DNA from: a phage
DNA length: 64,000 nt
Sequence record: PV805633.1
Reading direction: 5' to 3' (one strand)
Part shown: positions 2,682 through 54,033 of the stretch, in pieces
Layout of the letters: each line of letters starts with the position of its first letter
How positions within the stretch are numbered: position 1 is the stretch's first letter
Notes under the pieces: model-generated
Database searches by the model: none
Seen by the model: the letters and a program-made list of their open reading frames with translations, nothing else
Told to the model about the DNA's origin: nothing
Program-made: the position numbers and the translations under genes

Positions 2682-2990
2682 TTGAATGAAATAGTATGCA
2701 TACTTCCACACTTAGCTAAAGTAGCTGATAGGAATATACGGATACATTTACCCTTCCCATTAAGTAACCCATTCACTCGTAATGAAAGAACCACAGTAGA
2801 GGATATAGAGGTAGCTTATGAAGCTTACCTTCGTAATCGTCTTATTAGTGGTGACAAATTAATTACAGCAGAGATGGAAAGGATTGCTGGCTTTGTCACA
2901 GATAGTACAAAGAAACCTGTTGGTTTAATTGGTACTGAATCTGATGTTAACGTTATTCGTAAAATATTAATGGAGGCATTAAGCCAATGA
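2682..2990 (+). CDS. hypothetical protein (102 aa, TTG start)
   Basis: ORF track; GGAG 8 nt upstream. Confidence 0.45.
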   Translation: MNEIVCILPHLAKVADRNIRIHLPFPLSNPFTRNERTTVEDIEVAYEAYLRNRLISGDKLITAEMERIAGFVTDSTKKPVGLIGTESDVNVIRKILMEALSQ

Positions 2991-3208
2991 TGTACTCAAA
3001 CGATTATGGTATATGCCCAGTCTGTAAGAAAGGACGTGGAGTTGCCAATCATAAGCGTTGTAGTCGTATTTTGCAGAAACAACGGAACCAGGAAGAATGG
3101 TCTAAGGTGTTGGAAAATCAGCATAAAGAAGAGAATCAACAGATGGCTGTTAGGGCATCTACTCAACGTATTCGCCGTATTAACTATATACAAGGATACC
3201 AAAAGTGA
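2987..3208 (+). CDS. hypothetical small protein with CxxC motif
   Basis: ORF track; overlapping start/stop with neighbours. Confidence 0.5.
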   Translation: MMYSNDYGICPVCKKGRGVANHKRCSRILQKQRNQEEWSKVLENQHKEENQQMAVRASTQRIRRINYIQGYQK

Positions 3209-3462
3209 TTATTACATTCCCTGTAACTAAATCATTTAACTATATGGGACAAACTATTGAAGTCCCATTATGGGTTAAATATGTAGCCTTATTGCCTCGA
3301 CCACAGAAGAGTAAGAATGCCTCACTAATTGGATTTAGTAGAAAGCCTAAGCTAACCGAAAACTGTATTTGGAAGTCTAGCGGTAGACAAGAGGAAATTG
3401 GTTTTTGTGACTATGTACCTCAACCGAATACAGTATATCTAACCCTGGAGAAAGTAGAGTGA
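3205..3462 (+). CDS. hypothetical protein
   Basis: ORF track; start/stop coupling. Confidence 0.5.
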   Translation: MIITFPVTKSFNYMGQTIEVPLWVKYVALLPRPQKSKNASLIGFSRKPKLTENCIWKSSGRQEEIGFCDYVPQPNTVYLTLEKVE

Positions 3463-3773
3463 ATAATATTGTAGTAGTACATGATAGTACATTTACTGAT
3501 GTCGATAAGATGATGCGTAATATTGATTATGTATCTCAGACCAGTAAAGCATTTAACGAAGAGTTCACTATCTATTGTGAACCAGAGTCACCACTGGTTC
3601 CTGTATTAAAGGAAGCAGGTCTACCCTTCTCTACAGAGAACTTCCCGGAGGAACCAGAGTATATGATTACATTCATATATGACTTACATGATGGCTCTCC
3701 TGCTAGTGAACTAGCTATGAACCAGTGGAGTAGTAAACGTCCTGTATATGCTTTCCAGGTACTCAAACCATGA
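3459..3773 (+). CDS. hypothetical protein
   Basis: ORF track; start/stop coupling. Confidence 0.5.
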   Translation: MNNIVVVHDSTFTDVDKMMRNIDYVSQTSKAFNEEFTIYCEPESPLVPVLKEAGLPFSTENFPEEPEYMITFIYDLHDGSPASELAMNQWSSKRPVYAFQVLKP

Positions 3774-4791: not shown

Positions 4792-5610
4792 ATGTACTCA
4801 TCTATCGAACATCAGAAGCAGCTTGAAGTCCTATTCAATAAAAATCAATTACTGCCTCGCATGAGGAAGGAATTCGAGGACTCCAAAGAAATTGACTTTA
4901 AGGCATTCGCTGCCTATTTGGAAATTGATTATAAGCTGCTCATTGATGCAATGGTACAAATTGCCCTACATAAACGTGCTGACATCCAGACTATGATTGG
5001 CTCTCTCATGAGTCACTCAGATGATGCTCAGTACATCGCTGACTGTCTGTATAAGATGGCAGAGAATGACTGCTTCAACTATGACCCTACCATCGACAAG
5101 TTCGGTGTTATCTATGAGATTAGTGAAGATGTTCAGATGGAACTGGAAGCATTCCAGTATCCATTACCTATCGTAAGTGCTCCTAATCCTGTCAGAACTA
5201 ACAGGGATACTGGTTATTACCAGACTAAAGGAAGCATCATCCTCAAGAAGAACCATCATGAGATGGATGTCTGCCTTGACCACATCAACCGTATGAACAA
5301 TCAACGTCTCTGTATTAACTGGGACGTTGCTAACTATGTAAAAGACTCTCGTCCTAACATGGATAAACCCAAAGAGGGTGAAACCCGTCAGGAATATGAG
5401 AAACGTGTTAAAGCCTTTGAGAAGTACAGTCGTACAGCTAAGGAAGTAATGGAGTTAGTGACCCAAGAAGGTAATAACTTCTCACTAGGCCACAAATACG
5501 ACAAACGTGGGCGTACCTACGCTCAGGGCTATCACATTAACTATCAGGGAACCAGCTACAACAAAGCTGTTCTGGAGTTCGCTGATAAGGAGCTGGTAAA
5601 CGATGATTAA
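4792..5610 (+). CDS. phage RNA polymerase II small subunit (N-terminal part of a T7-like single-subunit RNAP; N4 gp15-like)
   Basis: KYDKRGRTYAQGYHINYQG resembles the T7 RNAP DWRGRVYAV...NPQG region; size 272 aa and position match N4 gp15. Confidence 0.65.
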   Translation: MYSSIEHQKQLEVLFNKNQLLPRMRKEFEDSKEIDFKAFAAYLEIDYKLLIDAMVQIALHKRADIQTMIGSLMSHSDDAQYIADCLYKMAENDCFNYDPTIDKFGVIYEISEDVQMELEAFQYPLPIVSAPNPVRTNRDTGYYQTKGSIILKKNHHEMDVCLDHINRMNNQRLCINWDVANYVKDSRPNMDKPKEGETRQEYEKRVKAFEKYSRTAKEVMELVTQEGNNFSLGHKYDKRGRTYAQGYHINYQGTSYNKAVLEFADKELVNDD

Positions 5611-5736
5611 TAATCGTGCAGTAGAAGACTTCTATGCTCATAGAGAGTTGGTACTGAAACGTATCAATGAAGCAATGAAACGTGAAGCAGAAGCTAAAGC
5701 TAAACGTAACCGTAAATAAATCCAAATGCGAGCCAA

Positions 5737-6185
5737 GTGGCTCAAGACGCTAAGGAATATAAAATGCAACTGTTAACCGCCCGTGAATACCTGAAAGTAG
5801 ATATCGCTAACAACTATGGCTTAGACAAAAAGACATGGGATGAGCGTATTAGCTGGTTCGATGAGAACGAAGCTAACCTGCTCAATCTGGTAGATGAAGC
5901 TGAAGAATCTGCACTGTTCTACGCAGGTGTAAACGCTTGGAAAGATATGAAAGCTGGTAAGCCTATCGGTTATGCCGTAGCTCTGGATGCTACATCATCT
6001 GGCTTGCAGTTACTGGCTTGCTTGACTGGTGATCGTTCTGCTGCTGAATTGTGTAATGTAGTTAACTACATGGGCGAGAATGGTAAGCCATTACGACGTG
6101 ATGCTTATACAGTTATCTATCACAAGATGCTGGACATCCTTGGTGAATCATCCCGTATTAAACGTAGTGATACTAAGCAGGCCGT
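5737..6185 (+). CDS. phage RNA polymerase II large subunit, exon 1 (motif A)
   Basis: LDATSSGLQLLACLTGD matches T7 RNAP motif A; frame ends 2 codons into the insertion; RIKRSDTKQAV is the first half of motif B. Confidence 0.7.
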
Positions 6186-6991
6186 TAACCTATAAGTCAT
6201 GGCGGCCTTTAAACCGGGTGAACTCATGGAACATCCCTAGTGGACAATCATGAGCCAAGTTGGTAACGTAGAAAGCTCAATAAGGAGCATTCTATGTCAG
6301 AATTCAAAACGTGCAGTCGATGTAAAGAATTACTTCCTATCGAAGTATTCCCAGAGACTAAAAAAGCAATCACAGGACTCAAGACTAATTACGAGAATCG
6401 TTGCAGACCTTGCAAGGCTGCTGCTGCTCGTGAATGGCGTAAAAATAATCCCGGTTACACTGGAACTGGGATTCTTAAGGCAATACCGGAAGAGCATCGT
6501 AATGGTATTCAGCAGTCTCACTTAGACTGAGAGATGCAAAGAGCAGATGTAAAAAGCTCGGTAAGCCTATGCCTGATTGCACAGTAGAGTACTTATTTGA
6601 AATCCTTAAATCACAGGAATTCAAATGTGCTTTAACTGGTGCAACCTTAGTAATTGAGTCGGGACATCCCTTGTGTCTATCATTAGACCAGATAGAGCCA
6701 AGCAAGGGATATAGTATTGATAATGTTCAATGGTTAGCTTGGTGTGTAAACCGAGCAAAGGGTGACCTTTCTACCAATGACTTTATTGATATGTGTGATG
6801 CTGTTTTGAATAACCAAAAGGTGCAGAGACTATCGAAAAGCAGCGTAAGCTGAACTTAGTAGAGTAGGCCCAAGTGGGTCGAAGCGCCCGGCTAGACTAA
6901 TAGTCTAGATGATATAGTCCGAACTCACTGGTAACAGTGAGATGCAGGTAAAGCTGCTGGGGAAGATTAACGACCTTCCTTGAACATAATG
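6186..6991 (+). mobile_element. putative group I intron carrying an HNH homing endonuclease
   Basis: Splits motif B; exon 1 ends in T, intron ends in G; GCGGCC guide sequence about 16 nt in pairs with the exon end GGCCGT with U-G at the splice site; P7-like AGACTA/TAGTCC and S-like GATGATATAGTCCG; internal ORF has its own AAGGAG SD. Confidence 0.6.
6294..6853 (+). CDS. HNH-family homing endonuclease, disrupted by a 1-nt frame change near 6500-6510
   Basis: N-terminal CSRCK...CRPCK zinc ribbon (ORF 6294..6530); C-terminal LRLRDAKSRCKKLGKP...CALTG...SLDQIEP..GYSIDNVQW..CVNRAKG in another frame (open from 6503, ORF 6569..6853). Confidence 0.55.
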
Positions 6992-7787
6992 TATGACTGC
7001 ATTCTATGGTTCAGAAGCCAAGCCTAAAGAAGTATTCGGTGAAGGTATTCGTCTCAAGACTTTTGAGAATGTAATGGAAACAGTTGCTAGTGGACCTTGG
7101 GCACTGAACAAGTTCTTACTGCAATGTGGTGACCCGGATGCTAACCGTTACGTATGGATACTGCCTGACAACTTCCATGCTGTCATTAAGGTCATGGTTC
7201 CAGAAGTACAGACTGTTAACTTCTTAGGTAAGCCATTCGACATCACTCGTATGGTTCAGGGTACTGAAGATAAGACTCGTATGCTCTCTGCTAACATCAC
7301 CCACTCTATTGATGGAATGGTGGTACGTGAGATGCTACGTCGTTGTAACTTCAACATGAACCAAGTGAACTATGTTAAGCCCCTCTGTGAAGGAACCAGT
7401 GAGTATATGCTGGGTACTAGCGAGAACTACGACATGGTTAGTCAACTGTGGCATAACTATGAGAAATCAGGATTCCTGTCTACCCGTATCTTTGATTATC
7501 TGGATTCTGACTCAATTAAACTGGTTGATACAGATGTAATCATGGCTATGCTTAATACCATGCCTAAGAAACCATTCCCTGTAATGACCGTACATGACTG
7601 CTTCCGTTGCCACCCTAACTACGGTAATGACTTGCGTCGTCAGTACAATCAGATTCTGTCTGACATTGCTAAGAGTGATCTACTGGGCTTCATCCTGTCT
7701 CAGGTACTGAGACAAGAGTTCTCTGCTGGTAAGCTGGATGACAGCCTCTGGCAGGACATCCTTGAAACGGATTATGCATTAAGTTAA
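6992..7787 (+). CDS. phage RNA polymerase II large subunit, exon 2 (motifs B and C)
   Basis: MTAFYGSEAKPK matches T7 MTLAYGSKEFG; VHDCF matches T7 motif C IHDSFG; exon 1 + exon 2 = about 414 aa, close to N4 gp16. Confidence 0.7.
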
Positions 7788-7794
7788 TAAACTG

Positions 7795-7829
7795 GCCTCA
7801 TACCTTCGGGTATGGGGCTTTTATTTTTT
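7795..7829 (+). terminator. rho-independent terminator
   Basis: GCCTCATACC-TTCG-GGTATGGGGC followed by TTTTATTTTTT. Confidence 0.7.
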
Positions 7830-7831
7830 GC

Positions 7832-8029
7832 TTGGAGGTAGTCAACATGACAGACATCTATGATGTTATTACTAAAACTGTACTGATAGTTTTATCTGCT
7901 ATTGTGGTATTCACTATAGCCAATGTTCATAAATCCAAGTTTTCCTATTGCTACTATGGGGCATATTCTGCCGGATGTTTTGTATTAGCCGGTTGGATAG
8001 CTTACTGGATTTACCACATCAACAACTAG
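7832..8029 (+). CDS. small membrane protein (65 aa)
   Basis: ORF track; two hydrophobic segments. Confidence 0.5.
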   Translation: MEVVNMTDIYDVITKTVLIVLSAIVVFTIANVHKSKFSYCYYGAYSAGCFVLAGWIAYWIYHINN

Positions 8030-8056
8030 CCACCCTCATGGGTGGCTTTCTTTTTA
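8030..8056 (+). terminator. rho-independent terminator
   Basis: GCCACCC-TCAT-GGGTGGC followed by TTTCTTTTT. Confidence 0.65.
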
Positions 8057-8102
8057 TCAGCCTTCATAATGATTAGGCATATTTACCTAAGAGGATACAT
8101 AC

Positions 8103-8924
8103 ATGCCAACCCTAAAGATTGCGTTTAATAAAACAACCAACGTTGCTATCGTGCTTGATTCAGATGGTAGTGTTCCAGATGGTTTTGCGGAAGTAGGTAC
8201 TTTTGTACATCCTGATGCCACTTACCCTGATAGCTTAGTTATCTATCACGGTGTACGTGACCTGTTGTATAAACGTTCTGCTGAAGACCCTGCTGAAGAA
8301 GGTTTCTGGCCTAACAACATCGTGGATATGCAGTCGATCACTATTACCCCACAACTGTCTATTGCTACCGAACTGCCTAATGAAGTCTCTGCCATCGAAG
8401 GTGAAGATATTAACTGGCATATTGATGTAGCAGGTGGTAAAGCACCTTTTACCTATAAGTGGCAATACAAAGCAGGTACTGATGGTGCAGTATTCACTGA
8501 TATTGATTCTAGTGATAACGAATCTGCTGCTACTGCAACATTGACCCTTAATGGCGTAACCACTGCTTCTGCTGGTACTTATAAAGTGATTGTTACTGAT
8601 GCTAATGGAACCACGGTGGAAGATACCTCACTGCTGACTGTAAGCTACCCCGAAGCAAGTTCACTGGTAGCTACCCCTGATTCACTGGAACTGTCTGTTG
8701 CTGACGATGCCACTGATGGTAAGACTGTAACCATTACTGCTATGCCTGTTGGAGCGTCTGTTGGTACTTTATCTATCAAGACTGCTCCAGATTCTGCCCG
8801 TGCTACAGCTACCATTTCTGATAACGTACTGACAGTTAAACCTGTGGCAGAAGGTGAAGCTACTTCTGTAGTAGTTACCAACGGTACTGTCGATGTAACC
8901 ATCGCTATTACTGTTGCAGCATAA
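8103..8924 (+). CDS. Ig-like domain protein (I-set-like plus Big_2-like)
   Basis: GGKAPFTYKWQYK...AGTYKVIVTDANG pattern, then TVKPVAEGEATSVVVTNGTVDVTI. Confidence 0.55.
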   Translation: MPTLKIAFNKTTNVAIVLDSDGSVPDGFAEVGTFVHPDATYPDSLVIYHGVRDLLYKRSAEDPAEEGFWPNNIVDMQSITITPQLSIATELPNEVSAIEGEDINWHIDVAGGKAPFTYKWQYKAGTDGAVFTDIDSSDNESAATATLTLNGVTTASAGTYKVIVTDANGTTVEDTSLLTVSYPEASSLVATPDSLELSVADDATDGKTVTITAMPVGASVGTLSIKTAPDSARATATISDNVLTVKPVAEGEATSVVVTNGTVDVTIAITVAA

Positions 8925-8973
8925 GGGTATCTCTTATTTGGGGTTATAAACCTGAAAGGAATCCCTCTAGTTT

Positions 8974-9010
8974 GACCTCCCTATTGAAGGGAGGTCTTTT
9001 TTTTTTTTTG
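8974..9010 (+). terminator. rho-independent terminator
   Basis: GACCTCCC-loop-GGGAGGTC followed by a T run of more than 10. Confidence 0.75.
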
Positions 9011-9034
9011 ACTTAAACAAACCGGAGCCAGGAA

Positions 9035-9223
9035 ATGTATAAAGAGATTGCATTCTTCTCGTTCTTGTTAGGTGGGTTAATTGGTGCAGGATTTGTAGCC
9101 ATTTCTAATAACTACTTTGGTTCTACTCCAAATTCTGTAACACAAACCCTCAAGCATGAATGTGAATTGAATATCCCTCGTAACCAAAACTGCGTAATGC
9201 AGTTCGTACCGGAGAAGAAATGA
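9035..9223 (+). CDS. small membrane protein
   Basis: ORF track; hydrophobic N-terminus. Confidence 0.45.
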   Translation: MYKEIAFFSFLLGGLIGAGFVAISNNYFGSTPNSVTQTLKHECELNIPRNQNCVMQFVPEKK

Positions 9224-9480
9224 ATATTCATAATCTACGTTTGGTTGAAAGACTGTATGAAGAATACAACGACAACCGACAGCAATTAGCTAGTATAAAA
9301 AAGTCCCCACATATGGTGAAAGTAACCTTCTGTGATACAGATTTGGGGGTACAAGCACGTACAAGCATAATCCCTAAATTGGTAGCATTTTATCAGAAGA
9401 AAGTGGATGACTTAGAGAAACGCCTAAAGCATTTAGGAGTTGACCTATCTTTATTACCTGAAGAAGAGGAAGAAGAGTGA
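9220..9480 (+). CDS. hypothetical protein
   Basis: ORF track; start/stop coupling. Confidence 0.5.
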   Translation: MNIHNLRLVERLYEEYNDNRQQLASIKKSPHMVKVTFCDTDLGVQARTSIIPKLVAFYQKKVDDLEKRLKHLGVDLSLLPEEEEEE

Positions 9481-9662
9481 AACTAACCCAGTCCCAAGCA
9501 ATTTTCCTTCGCATGATTCAAGGTGGTTCTGCCACCAGCAACCGTAATAACAAAACCGCACAGTCTCTTAAGAAGCTGGGCTTAGTACAGTTCAATGCTG
9601 GTCTTGGGTGGTCATTAACCCCTACCGGCGTACTTCAACTCAACGAATTAAAAGGTAACTAA
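9477..9662 (+). CDS. hypothetical protein
   Basis: ORF track. Confidence 0.45.
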   Translation: MKLTQSQAIFLRMIQGGSATSNRNNKTAQSLKKLGLVQFNAGLGWSLTPTGVLQLNELKGN

Positions 9663-9989
9663 ATGAAAACTTTAATTGCTGTTGTTCTAGTAGCTCTATC
9701 AGTTCTGTCATTCGGTGCTCAGGCATCCAGTCGTGCAACCTTGTTGGAATCTGCTGCTGATTACAAAGCCAATAATGCAAACTTTGTGAACCAGGGTTAC
9801 TTCATGGGCATGGTTACTATGGGTGTGGAAGCAGGAAAGAATTGTGTACCTGACGGTATAAAATTAGGGCACATTTTTGACAGAGTGGCCTCTATTATTC
9901 TGTATGACCGAAAGGTTAATGCAGTAAAAGTACCATCAGACATGGTTCTGTTAGCGATTAATACAGCCTATCCCTGCGTTAAATCTTAA
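9663..9989 (+). CDS. secreted/periplasmic small protein with signal peptide
   Basis: MKTLIAVVLVALSVLSFGAQA/SS signal-peptide pattern; two Cys. Confidence 0.5.
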   Translation: MKTLIAVVLVALSVLSFGAQASSRATLLESAADYKANNANFVNQGYFMGMVTMGVEAGKNCVPDGIKLGHIFDRVASIILYDRKVNAVKVPSDMVLLAINTAYPCVKS

Positions 9990-10023
9990 TTAGTAATTCC
10001 ATTAACTTTAGGAGAGTAAGTAA

Positions 10024-11076
10024 ATGGCGAACATTGACTCCTTGACTGTATGTAATACACGGCAAGCCCGTAACTTTATTATCCGTGCCTTGCAAGCAGG
10101 TAACGTACCGTTCCTGACTTCATCACCGGGTATGGGTAAGTCTGCAATTATTCATTCTATTGCAGAAGAATTTGGTATGAAGCTGATTGACCATCGTTTG
10201 TCTACTTCTGCCCCAGAAGACTTATCTGGTCTACCATTCCGTAATGGTGACCGTGCAGAATTTATTCCTTTCGCTGATTTATTCCCTATCGAGGGTGACG
10301 AAGTACCGAAAGGTTATAATGGCTGGCTCCTGTTCCTTGATGAGTTCAACTCAGCTAAAAAGGAAGTAGTAGCTGCTGCATACAAACTGATTCTAGACCG
10401 TATGACCGGACAGAAAAAACTTCACCCTAATGTGATGATTATCTGTGCCGGTAACAAAGCTACTGACCGAGCCATAGTTAACCCACTGGGTACTGCAATG
10501 CAGTCCCGTGTTGTCCACTTCGAAATGGAACTCGACTTCGACATCTTTGTTGAAGACGTTATGATTCCACAAGAATGGGATGAGCGTCTGGTTGCATTCT
10601 TACATGCTAACCCTGGTTATCTGCATGACTTCGACCCTGCCCACAAGAACAAAACATTCTGTTGCCCACGTACCTGGGACTTTGTTAACAAAGACCTCAA
10701 GAACCGACCAGAAGGTGCTTTGCCTGATGAAGATTCTATCTACTATGCAGGCCACGTCACTGCTGGTAAAGCTACAGAGTTTGTTCAGTTCACTCAGGTA
10801 TACAATCGTATGATTACGATTGAGAAGGTAGTCAAAGACCCTTTGGGATGTGCACTACCGGAAGATAATAACCTGTGCTGGGCTACTGTTAACCATCTGG
10901 CTAACAAAACTACTGAAGATAACTTCGCTGATGTTCTTCAGTACATTGAACGCTTTAAAACGTTCACCCATAAGATTCTGTACTTCCGTACAGTAGGCAA
11001 AGCATTACCAGAAATTCAGGCTACCCCTGAATGGCGTAAAGCTGCTGCCAATATCTCTCGTTACATTCACGGATAA
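10024..11076 (+). CDS. MoxR-like AAA+ ATPase
   Basis: Walker A SPGMGKS; Walker B/MoxR motif LFLDEFNSA...AAAYKLILDR. Confidence 0.7.
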   Translation: MANIDSLTVCNTRQARNFIIRALQAGNVPFLTSSPGMGKSAIIHSIAEEFGMKLIDHRLSTSAPEDLSGLPFRNGDRAEFIPFADLFPIEGDEVPKGYNGWLLFLDEFNSAKKEVVAAAYKLILDRMTGQKKLHPNVMIICAGNKATDRAIVNPLGTAMQSRVVHFEMELDFDIFVEDVMIPQEWDERLVAFLHANPGYLHDFDPAHKNKTFCCPRTWDFVNKDLKNRPEGALPDEDSIYYAGHVTAGKATEFVQFTQVYNRMITIEKVVKDPLGCALPEDNNLCWATVNHLANKTTEDNFADVLQYIERFKTFTHKILYFRTVGKALPEIQATPEWRKAAANISRYIHG

Positions 11077-11083
11077 TCACAAC

Positions 11084-12259
11084 ATGAACCAGATACCTCA
11101 GCACACACTTAGTGATGAACAACTCATGCGTGAGTATGACCGTATTCAGGCCCAAGCCTTCCTAGGCAAGTCTGCTGCGTTTTTTGGTTCATTGCTGTGT
11201 AGTCTTAAGTTCTCATGGAAACGTGAGGGTTGTCCCACTGCATGTACCGATGGGATAGAACTCCATTTCAACCCTGACTTCTTTATCTGGATGTGCCCTG
11301 ATGCAAGAGAAACAGTGCTAATGCACGAACTCTGGCATGTGGCATATCTGCATGGCATCCGTTGTGGAAGCCGTGACCCGGAAGTCTGGAACCAGGCATG
11401 TGACCACTTCATTAACCTTCAGTTAGAGGAAGATGGTTACAAGTTCACTGGTATCGACGAAGGTATTTGCAAAGACCCTCAATATAAAGGATGGGTCGAA
11501 GAAGACATCTACGATGACCTGATGAAGAACCCTCAGAAAAGGCAGAAGCCGTCGGGGGGAGCTGGAGCAAGTCTTGCTGGCGACATGAAAGCCCCCTCTT
11601 CGGGGCAGTCCCAGGGTGCTGTTGTCAACAACGTAGTGCGTGCAATGCAAAGCCAGAAGATGGCTGGTGGAACAATGCCCGGTAAAGGTGCTGGTCGTAT
11701 GGAAGAGGTTATTACCCAATTCCTTAAACCAGTAGTTCCATGGCAGGAAGTTCTGATGAACTTCTTTACCGACATTGATGACACACATTATACGTGGGCC
11801 AGACCTAACCGTCGCTTCACTGACGTCTATCTACCTTCTCTGGAAGATGATGAAGGACGCTTACGACACTTAGCCTACTTTGAGGATGTATCCGGTTCTA
11901 TTAGTAGTGCTGACTCTCTGCGTTTTAACTCAGAGGTTGCCTACGTTAAGAGCCAGTTCAATCCTAAGAAGATGACCCTAATTACCTTCGACGATATTAT
12001 CCAAGAAGAAATAGACATCACTGAAGAAGATACTTTTGAAGAGATTAAGATTACTGGTCGTGGTGGTACAAACCTTGAACCAGTGCGCGAATGGATTATT
12101 AAGAATAAACCAACCGCTGCAATCATATTCTCCGATATGTATGTTCGTCCAATGGAAGAATTACCATTTGATATCCCTATCATCTGGTGTGTTCTGAATA
12201 ATCCTAATGCTACCGTACCTTTCGGGGAGGTAGTTCATATCCCTAAAGGAATGAAATAA
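11084..12259 (+). CDS. VWA-like / putative metallopeptidase partner of the MoxR ATPase
   Basis: HELWHVAYLH (HExxH) in the N-terminal half; immediately downstream of the MoxR-like gene. Confidence 0.45.
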   Translation: MNQIPQHTLSDEQLMREYDRIQAQAFLGKSAAFFGSLLCSLKFSWKREGCPTACTDGIELHFNPDFFIWMCPDARETVLMHELWHVAYLHGIRCGSRDPEVWNQACDHFINLQLEEDGYKFTGIDEGICKDPQYKGWVEEDIYDDLMKNPQKRQKPSGGAGASLAGDMKAPSSGQSQGAVVNNVVRAMQSQKMAGGTMPGKGAGRMEEVITQFLKPVVPWQEVLMNFFTDIDDTHYTWARPNRRFTDVYLPSLEDDEGRLRHLAYFEDVSGSISSADSLRFNSEVAYVKSQFNPKKMTLITFDDIIQEEIDITEEDTFEEIKITGRGGTNLEPVREWIIKNKPTAAIIFSDMYVRPMEELPFDIPIIWCVLNNPNATVPFGEVVHIPKGMK

Positions 12260-52830: not shown

Positions 52831-54033
52831 TTACAGAGGAGCAACAGTCTTAATCAGAGCCAGACGTTCCGGACGTTTAACCAGGATACCGTAGTACCAC
52901 TTGATGGAACTGAAACCAGTCTCACCATACGGGTCATTACGGTCAGCAGTTTCACGACCAGGCATCTTAGTCATGATGGAGAACTTAACAGACTTACCAT
53001 CAGTCTGGAAGCCAATGGTAGAGAAGGAGTCATCACCAACTACCAGCATCGGGAACACGTCATAGTGTTCTTCACCACTAACCATAGAAGAACGGTAACC
53101 CGGGTTAGTAGAGACTTGAGCACCAGCACCTGCCCAATGCAGCATCTCAGGAACCTGGATAATACGGAACTTGTCGATACAACCAATCTCACCATTCATC
53201 AGAGTACCAGCATCAGCATAGTGCTGAACCTCGATGAATGCTTTGTTACCGAATAGGTCTTTCATCGCTTTCAGTTCTGGAACAAGTTCAGAACCAACGT
53301 ACATTACACGAGTACCACCAAGTACTTTGGTATCGGTAAGTTTAGAACCAGTGATGATAGTAGTCTGGGTCGGAGTACGGTTCTCAGTAAGAATCTGGTC
53401 AAGACGCATCAGGTTCTTATAAGAAACTACAGATGGGGTAGCACCTTCACCAGTGATGGTAGCATCGGAGGTAGCAGCACCTGCATACAGTACAGTACCA
53501 GCAGCAGCCAACAGATCTTTCTGGAGAACAGCTTCAGTCAGCTGTACAGCACCGTTCATCAGTTCACGAGACAGGTGTTCTTTCAGTTGGTCATCAGAAT
53601 CAAAGTCCAGAGACTCTTGAGTAAATTCGTAGAAGAAACCGAACTTATGAATGGAACCTTCACGAGACAGACGAGTAAAGCCTACACGGTTAACACGACC
53701 ACCGTTCTCTGTCAGCAGAGGCAGTTTAGAAGTGATGTTACCAACGTCTCGGGAAGAACCATACAGGTTACCATTAACAATGGTAGCACCATTAGCATCA
53801 ATACCCTGGTCGTTGATGTTCTTATCGTCAAGCAGTGGAACGTATTCATACACCTTAACAGTCTTACCGTAGTTCTTCGGCATGTTAATGGTGTTAGCCA
53901 GTGGCATGAAGTACTGGTCTTTACGGGACTGAATAATAGCTTTCTTCAGCCAGTAATAGGTATTCATCTGGTCGGAACCAGTACCATCAATGCTAGATTT
54001 CTGGCCGTCAATTGGGGCGTTATAGTTTAACAT
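52831..54033 (-). CDS. major capsid protein (N4 gp56-like)
   Basis: 400 aa; position between portal and virion proteins; size matches N4 MCP. Confidence 0.6.

Follow-up and report, generated by a model that had tools for sequence, protein, structure and literature searches.

A predicted ortholog of the N4 capsid decoration protein gp17 is encoded as a terminator-bounded single gene in the early/middle region of a G7C-like coliphage

We analysed an open reading frame at positions 8103-8924 of phage sequence record PV805633.1, the window being the whole 64,000-nt stretch, and found that its product is very probably an ortholog of N4 gp17, the auxiliary capsid decoration ("cement") protein, in a G7C-like N4-like podophage. 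A first-pass annotation made from the DNA letters had delimited exactly this plus-strand ORF of 273 aa. It had ascribed I-set-like and Big_2-like domains to the product, and had offered as candidate roles a capsid decoration or adhesion protein expressed early, or a host-surface-directed factor. The protein is of an already known kind: its family has been characterised structurally, and the ortholog encoded here is an ordinary one that occupies the conserved position. Both the protein family and its odd genomic position have reportedly been described in work on N4 from 2008 onward, and the structure of gp17 on the N4 capsid is said to have been resolved at 2.45 Å in 2024.

The window protein shared 95.6% identity with G7C gp17 (AEL79626.1), which is annotated as a "capsid decorating protein", and 63% identity with N4 gp17, the "32 kDa protein", over the full length (BLASTP, E=2e-124). 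N4 gp17 chains in the capsid and virion cryo-EM entries 9E99, 9LBZ, and 9LD7 matched residues 1-271 (phmmer, E=4e-105 for 9E99_J), and a PDB sequence search also returned the 273-aa "Ig-like domain-containing protein" of phage Moo19 (9D7Z, E=1e-83). Residues 1-273 aligned with positions 1-310 of the PHROG 2973 profile, "Hoc-like head decoration" (E=5e-94). When an AlphaFold2 model built from 20 homologues was compared with the PDB using Foldseek, the best matches were 9E99_K/J, 9LBZ, and 9D7Z. A large protein collection contained 197 homologues at E<=1e-5, mostly of 277 aa and many from complete N4-like genomes of ~71-73 kb. Collectively, these similarities place the window protein in the N4 gp17 family (PHROG 2973). 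The proposed role in capsid decoration is supported by this orthology, as both N4 gp17 and Moo19 gp28 have been seen on capsids by cryo-EM.

Two database records call for comment. The G7C record carries the remark "confirmed presence in G7C virion" on gp51, gp54, and gp67, but not on gp17. One homologue, P0012, with 83% identity to the window protein, is listed at NCBI under Enterococcus faecium, as a hypothetical protein encoded on a 2.76-Mb contig. Since every other close homologue belongs to an N4-like phage of E. coli or Shigella, this record is almost certainly a contamination or chimeric assembly.

The protein is predicted to consist of three domains (Table 1), of which the N-terminal one, DI, had no counterpart in the first-pass annotation. 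Structure prediction, which that annotation had named as a check, yielded Ig-type folds for the other two, with confident beta-sandwiches at residues 83-181 and 185-273 (AlphaFold2, pLDDT ~85-96). The proposed I-set-like domain corresponds to DII, a predicted beta-sandwich with a pLDDT of ~90. Pfam scores on residues 90-176 fell just under the cut-offs for both Ig_3 (PF13927; 27.8 bits, cut-off 30) and I-set (PF07679; 23.1 bits, cut-off 23.7), and a PF13927 match is precomputed for most close homologues. Besides the N4 and Moo19 homologues, the best fold matches of the model in the PDB were titin Ig (I-set) tandems (Foldseek).

The Big_2-like label stood by fold and failed by Pfam. Searches with DI alone and with DIII alone (182-273) returned no family at E<=10, Big_2 included, so the label was tested by fold instead. 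Modelled alone, DIII reached a pLDDT of 87, and its model superimposed on DIII of 9E99 with a TM of 0.89 and an rmsd of 1.6 (Foldseek). Its best non-homologue match was the C-terminal Ig-like (Big_2) domain of lambda gpV (2L04/7T4F; TM 0.68-0.74, 28% identity), followed by Big_2-CBM56 domains (7QUZ/7R3T; TM 0.67), suggesting that DIII is Big_2-like at the level of the fold alone. The lambda domain differs from DIII in being carried by a tail tube protein, while DIII has no Pfam Big_2 match; residues 205-272 weakly matched PHROG 41, "major tail protein" (E=0.004).

DI was poorly predicted (pLDDT 34-50, AlphaFold2), and its fold assignment rests on a gap-free alignment to the solved DI of N4 and Moo19. 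In N4-like phages of Klebsiella, Achromobacter, Xanthomonas, Stenotrophomonas, Burkholderia, and Pseudomonas, the match was limited to query residues 1-88, and the three such proteins inspected were 171-257 aa long. Of the three domains, DI is the one retained most widely across the Schitoviridae.

Table 1. Coordinates of the gp17-type gene, its predicted domains and signals, and other features of the window.
Feature	Position	Strand	Description
CDS, gp17-type capsid decoration protein (predicted)	8103..8924	+	ATG start, 273 aa plus stop
DI, putative capsid anchor (aa 1-82)	8103..8348	+	1:1 alignment with chains of 9E99 and 9D7Z
DII, I-set/Ig_3-like beta-sandwich (aa 83-181), predicted	8349..8645	+	Pfam near-threshold, AlphaFold2, fold matches
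DIII, Big_2-like beta-sandwich (aa 182-273), predicted	8646..8921	+	Model and fold matches
Third terminator	7794-7819		
Small ORF, counterpart of G7C gp16.1	7832-8029	+	65 aa
Upstream intrinsic terminator	8028..8057 (hairpin 8028-8047)	+	8-bp GC-rich stem AGCCACCC/GGGTGGCT, loop TCAT, then TTCTTTTTAT
5' leader and presumed promoter region of the gp17-type gene	8058..8102	+	Conserved block CATAATGATTAGGCATATTTAC
Shine-Dalgarno sequence	8089-8095	+	AAGAGGA, strong, 7 nt 5' of the ATG
Downstream intrinsic terminator	8974..9009 (hairpin 8974-8996)	+	9-bp stem GACCTCCCT/AGGGAGGTC, loop ATTGA, then 13 T (8997-9009)
Small ORF	9035-9223		Membrane-protein-like
ORF with no G7C counterpart	9220-9480	+	86 aa, acidic C-terminus (EEEEEE)
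Major capsid protein, N4 gp56 ortholog	52831..54033	-	E=1e-244 to 9E99_A, 4e-246 to 9D7Z_A, full length
Insert in the RNAPII large-subunit gene (gp16)	6186-6991	+	806 nt, putative group I intron
gp16 exons	about 5737/5764-6185 and 6992-7787		G7C gp16 residues 1-141 at ~5764-6185, residues 142-405 at 6993-7784
Short ORFs in the insert	6294-6530 and 6569-6853		
Rfam RF00028 matches	6602-6941 and 6150-6403		30.2 bits (E=5e-5) and 17.8 bits
Sites of G7C HNH loci (G7C 2986-3567 and 7818-8294)	5610-5737 and 11076-11084		HNH genes absent in the window

Compared to the window protein, G7C gp17 has the same length of 273 aa, the same flanking stem-loops, and the same neighbours (gp16, gp16.1, and gp17.1); it differs by about a dozen substitutions over all three domains, as 95.6% identity across 272 aligned residues implies. 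N4 gp17 shares the order DI-DII-DIII, the position right after the RNAPII large-subunit gene, and a conserved capsid-protein partner, whereas it is 279 aa long, its linkers being longer by 4 residues (DI-DII) and by 3 residues (DII-DIII). Shigella phage Moo19 gp28 is again 273 aa and aligned over its full length, with ~51-52% identity over the modelled residues and a DII from which several residues of the 124-143 region are missing. A 4-residue stretch of the DI-DII linker (D-M-K/Q-A), present in all 17 other aligned homologues, N4 included, is absent after residue 81 (8345-8346) from the window protein, G7C gp17, and homologue P0001. This deletion gives a shorter hinge between the anchor DI and DII.

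How such a protein is mounted is known from N4, where, in the capsid at 2.45 Å, each asymmetric unit of the T=9 shell carries three flat-lying gp17 monomers (PMC11768535). DI is found at each of the quasi-3-fold axes, DII rests flat against a major capsid protein subunit, on its P-domain and beside a quasi-2-fold axis, and DIII is flexible and solvent-exposed, with minimal capsid contact (PMC11768535). The authors concluded that gp17 reinforces the capsid and that DIII perhaps has an accessory, "uncertain, non-structural function"; the stabilising role stems from unpublished mutant data cited in papers (PMC11768535). A review states that N4 virions lacking gp17 are still infective and are less stable to EDTA and DNase (PMC7602432), and about 175 copies are present per N4 capsid (PMC3715699). 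Moo19 gp28 was detected in virions by mass spectrometry, with residues 1-183 modelled on the capsid, and its authors allow that it may not stabilise the capsid at all (PMC11654681). The two structural papers also differ on placement, which is quasi-3-fold/quasi-2-fold in N4 (PMC11768535) and "quasi-sixfold" in Moo19 (PMC11654681).

The same genome encodes the cognate N4-type (T=9, HK97-fold) major capsid protein, identified by sequence match. Its similarity to the N4 and Moo19 capsid proteins (E ~1e-245) almost equals the similarity between those two, so the gp17-type protein is expected to bind in the same way. By homology with N4, the T=9 head would be assembled first from the major capsid protein, and gp17-type monomers would then bind flat on its outer surface, three per asymmetric unit. 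DI would plug each quasi-3-fold axis, DII would rest on the capsid-protein P-domain near the quasi-2-fold axis, and DIII would project into the solvent on a flexible linker. The predicted net effect is that contacts between capsomers are reinforced against internal pressure.

An alternative, which we consider unlikely, is that the protein sits on the capsid but has been selected for adhesion, with the exposed DIII, with or without DII, acting as a putative binder of host-surface or gut-mucus glycans. Such binding would enrich the phage near the host, an effect already suggested for Ig-like decorations, T4 Hoc among them. The minimal contact of DIII with the N4 capsid and the non-structural function proposed for it (PMC11768535) are consistent with this possibility, as is a review that gives "stability, host adhesion" for gp17 (PMC7602432). 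DIII also resembles both the lambda gpV C-terminal Ig domain, which is dispensable, and Big_2 domains found on carbohydrate-binding modules. Furthermore, the shorter relatives that match in just their N-terminal ~60-90 residues fit a conserved anchor combined with a changeable outward-facing part. However, DI and DII of N4 gp17 lie flat and bridge capsomers, which is the geometry of a cementing protein (PMC11768535), and DIII is not markedly more variable than the other domains among close relatives, with a mean identity to the window protein of 74.8% compared to 78.8% for DI and 71.6% for DII. Adhesion could also coexist with cementing, and so is not an exclusive alternative to a capsid decoration protein.

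The host-surface-directed factor suggested in the first-pass annotation would instead be a non-virion early/middle protein acting at the host surface or envelope; superinfection exclusion would be one such activity, a secreted or adhesive factor another example. The neighbourhood by itself would fit such a protein, as the gene lies among non-structural early/middle genes and small membrane-protein-like ORFs (7832-8029 and 9035-9223). This reading is highly improbable given that orthologs have been resolved on capsids at atomic resolution and that the N-terminus, the part most widely retained in the family, is the capsid-binding domain in N4 (PMC11768535). The protein starts with the polar sequence MPTLKIAFNKTTNVAIV, and no signal peptide or transmembrane segment was apparent by eye.

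Several GenBank records of close relatives suggest yet another identity, a neck whisker or fibritin (wac-like) protein, with the labels "fibritin (wac) protein" and "neck whiskers protein" applied to orthologs 81-83% identical to the window protein. Residues 85-183 do weakly match wac of RB43-group phages (tblastn, 32-35% identity, E about 1e-6), but the likeness is confined to the single Ig-like domain DII. We found no coiled-coil or foldon, the model being all-beta in the predicted region 83-273, and in the structures solved for N4 and Moo19 the protein is located on the surface of the icosahedral capsid, off the neck, leaving a fibritin scarcely credible. The wac labels likely stem from the shared Ig domain DII. 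Together with "tail protein" and "kappa-carrageenase", which are also found on relatives, they are annotation artefacts, and identifying the gene as a gp17-type decoration gene has the corrective value of showing that close relatives labelled fibritin/wac, neck whisker, or tail protein are mis-annotated.

Databases call the gp17 family "Hoc-like", and T4 Hoc resembles gp17 in being a non-essential monomeric capsid decoration made of Ig-like domains. Among PDB sequence matches to the window protein at E<=1 there were no Hoc chains (e.g. 3SHS). Hoc is a fibre that projects from hexamer centres, at the quasi-6-fold axis (PMC11768535, PMC7602432), whereas gp17, from its mounting in N4, lies flat at quasi-2-fold/quasi-3-fold sites with an N-terminal anchor (PMC11768535). 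The capsid-binding domain of Hoc is described as C-terminal in one source (PMC11768535) and as N-terminal in another (PMC7602432); given this disagreement, the comparison with Hoc leaves domain order aside. "Hoc-like" appears to denote a functional analogy and a shared fold class rather than homology, with the gp17 family falling outside the Hoc family.

The window belongs to a Gamaleyavirus (Schitoviridae, Enquatrovirinae), a G7C-like N4-like coliphage. Its first 25 kb were 95.7% identical in DNA sequence to Escherichia phage vB_EcoP_G7C over 90% of their length, starting at G7C base 1. On the 5' side, the gp17-type gene is preceded by genes for both subunits of the T7-like RNAPII (N4 gp15 and gp16) and then by the 65-aa ORF (G7C gp16.1); on the 3' side it is followed by three or four small ORFs, a gp24-like ATPase, and gp25. 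In G7C, the virion genes (vRNAP, major capsid protein, portal, tail, and terminase) lie on the opposite strand from ~36 kb onward, and in the window the major capsid protein gene is ~44 kb away from the gp17-type gene on the opposite strand. The setting described in the first-pass annotation, a plus-strand gene among early/middle genes, bounded by terminators and far from the structural module, was correct. An 86-aa ORF located between the gp17.1-like and gp17.2-like ORFs, two genes downstream of the gp17-type gene, is absent from G7C, which accounts for the ~8% of positions 7000-10000 left uncovered by that genome.

This location, 3' of the RNAPII large-subunit gene on the rightward strand, is shared with other members of the gp17 family. 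Either right after the RNAPII large-subunit gene or with one to three small ORFs in between, it is found in every one of the following phages: N4, G7C, PhAPEC5, and pSb-1 (Enquatrovirinae), Ea9-2 (Erskinevirinae), phiAxp-3 and JWAlpha (Rothmandenesvirinae), RiverRider, and one Klebsiella N4-like phage. The phages in which the position is kept include N4-like phages of Klebsiella, Xanthomonas, and Achromobacter. By this comparison of gene order, a place among early/middle genes is normal for the decoration gene across several Schitoviridae subfamilies and no anomaly. The corrective value here is that a structural gene in the early/middle block is a family trait, with its terminator-bounded single-gene layout kept.

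The terminators proposed on both sides of the gene proved real, each hairpin being followed by a T run (Table 1). The upstream one closes the small gp16.1-like ORF, and its position is kept in six phages (that of the window, G7C, PhAPEC5, pSb-1, N4, and Ea9-2), among which the stems vary: AGCCACCC, ACCCTCC, GGCTATCCC, and AGCCCTC. Constancy of position despite a changing stem points to a terminator under selection, and the G7C and PhAPEC5 records annotate the hairpin as a stem_loop or terminator. The downstream hairpin is identical among Gamaleyaviruses, and N4 and Ea9-2 each have a different hairpin before the next gene. The first 20 kb contain only about six strong terminators on the plus strand, and three of these, the third terminator included, cluster around the gp17-type gene; in the 2-kb region around it, 6 terminator-like sites were observed vs 1.3 expected from shuffles. 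Rfam matches in the downstream terminator region (CRISPR-DR63, suhB, and MIR159; E 0.18-0.64) were discarded as chance matches to the hairpin.

The T run of the downstream terminator has 13 T in the window vs 7 T in G7C, PhAPEC5, and pSb-1, a difference that may reflect homopolymer length variation or a sequencing artefact. The 65-aa ORF upstream of the gene is hydrophobic, and its product resembles a small membrane protein. As the third and the upstream terminators lie on either side of this ORF, two insulated single-gene units follow one another here; in N4, the gp16.1 position holds no ORF.

Between the upstream terminator and the ATG, the alignment revealed a leader block, CATAATGATTAGGCATATTTAC, common to Gamaleyaviruses and N4, with the consensus CATAATG..TAGGCAT.TT.AC between the two. 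A promoter scan of this interval returned no sigma-70-like site. For comparison, all that is described of the N4 RNAPII promoter is a short AT-rich stretch spanning -7 to +2 (PMC4496689). The leader block was also considered as a repeated promoter motif (CATAATGATTAGGCAT); allowing <=3 mismatches, it had 3 matches in the window vs 0.83 expected, and the other two lay on the opposite strand, so it is not a repeated motif in the window. Taken together, these features suggest that the gp17-type gene is a conserved, insulated single-gene unit with its own leader and a strong ribosome-binding site.

The gene would be transcribed rightward, within a region of phage RNAPII and replication genes. A literature search found no published N4 time-resolved transcriptomics covering gp17. 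N4 RNAPII (middle) transcripts have been mapped to the leftmost half of the genome (PMC4496689), and together with the location of the gp17-type gene in that half, this makes middle-class expression the most economical reading. We infer that the gene is probably of the middle (RNAPII) class and not, like the other virion genes, of the leftward late class. A broader proposal, which we hold to be quite unlikely, is that DIII is a putative glycan or mucus adhesin conferring a sub-diffusive "search" advantage on a gut coliphage, and that the insulated unit lets a protein of ~175 copies be made independently of, and perhaps before, the host-RNAP-dependent late virion genes.

More unusual than the decoration gene is a nearby intron-like insert of 806 nt, which splits the RNAPII large-subunit gene (gp16) between V141 and M142 of G7C gp16. 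The G7C gp16 reading frame is restored exactly once the insert is removed, and the junctions can be drawn with U before the 5' junction and G as the last base. Two parts of the region matched the Rfam group I intron family RF00028, both below the gathering score of 50, and the two short ORFs within the insert have the appearance of a broken homing-endonuclease gene. Among 50,697 phage records searched, the insert was found in no E. coli phage; the sole similarity, 77% over 254 nt, was to the Achromobacter N4-like phages JWAlpha and JWDelta. In JWAlpha, the one of the two that was inspected, the RNAP2 gene is also split by an endonuclease ORF. These observations suggest that the insert is likely a mobile group I intron, still putative, in an essential transcription gene. 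Conversely, the window lacks two HNH genes that stand free in G7C, 15.1 (gp15/gp16) and 24.1 (gp24/gp25), and has the intron-like insert in gp16 instead, suggesting that homing-endonuclease content turns over between genomes that are 96% identical.
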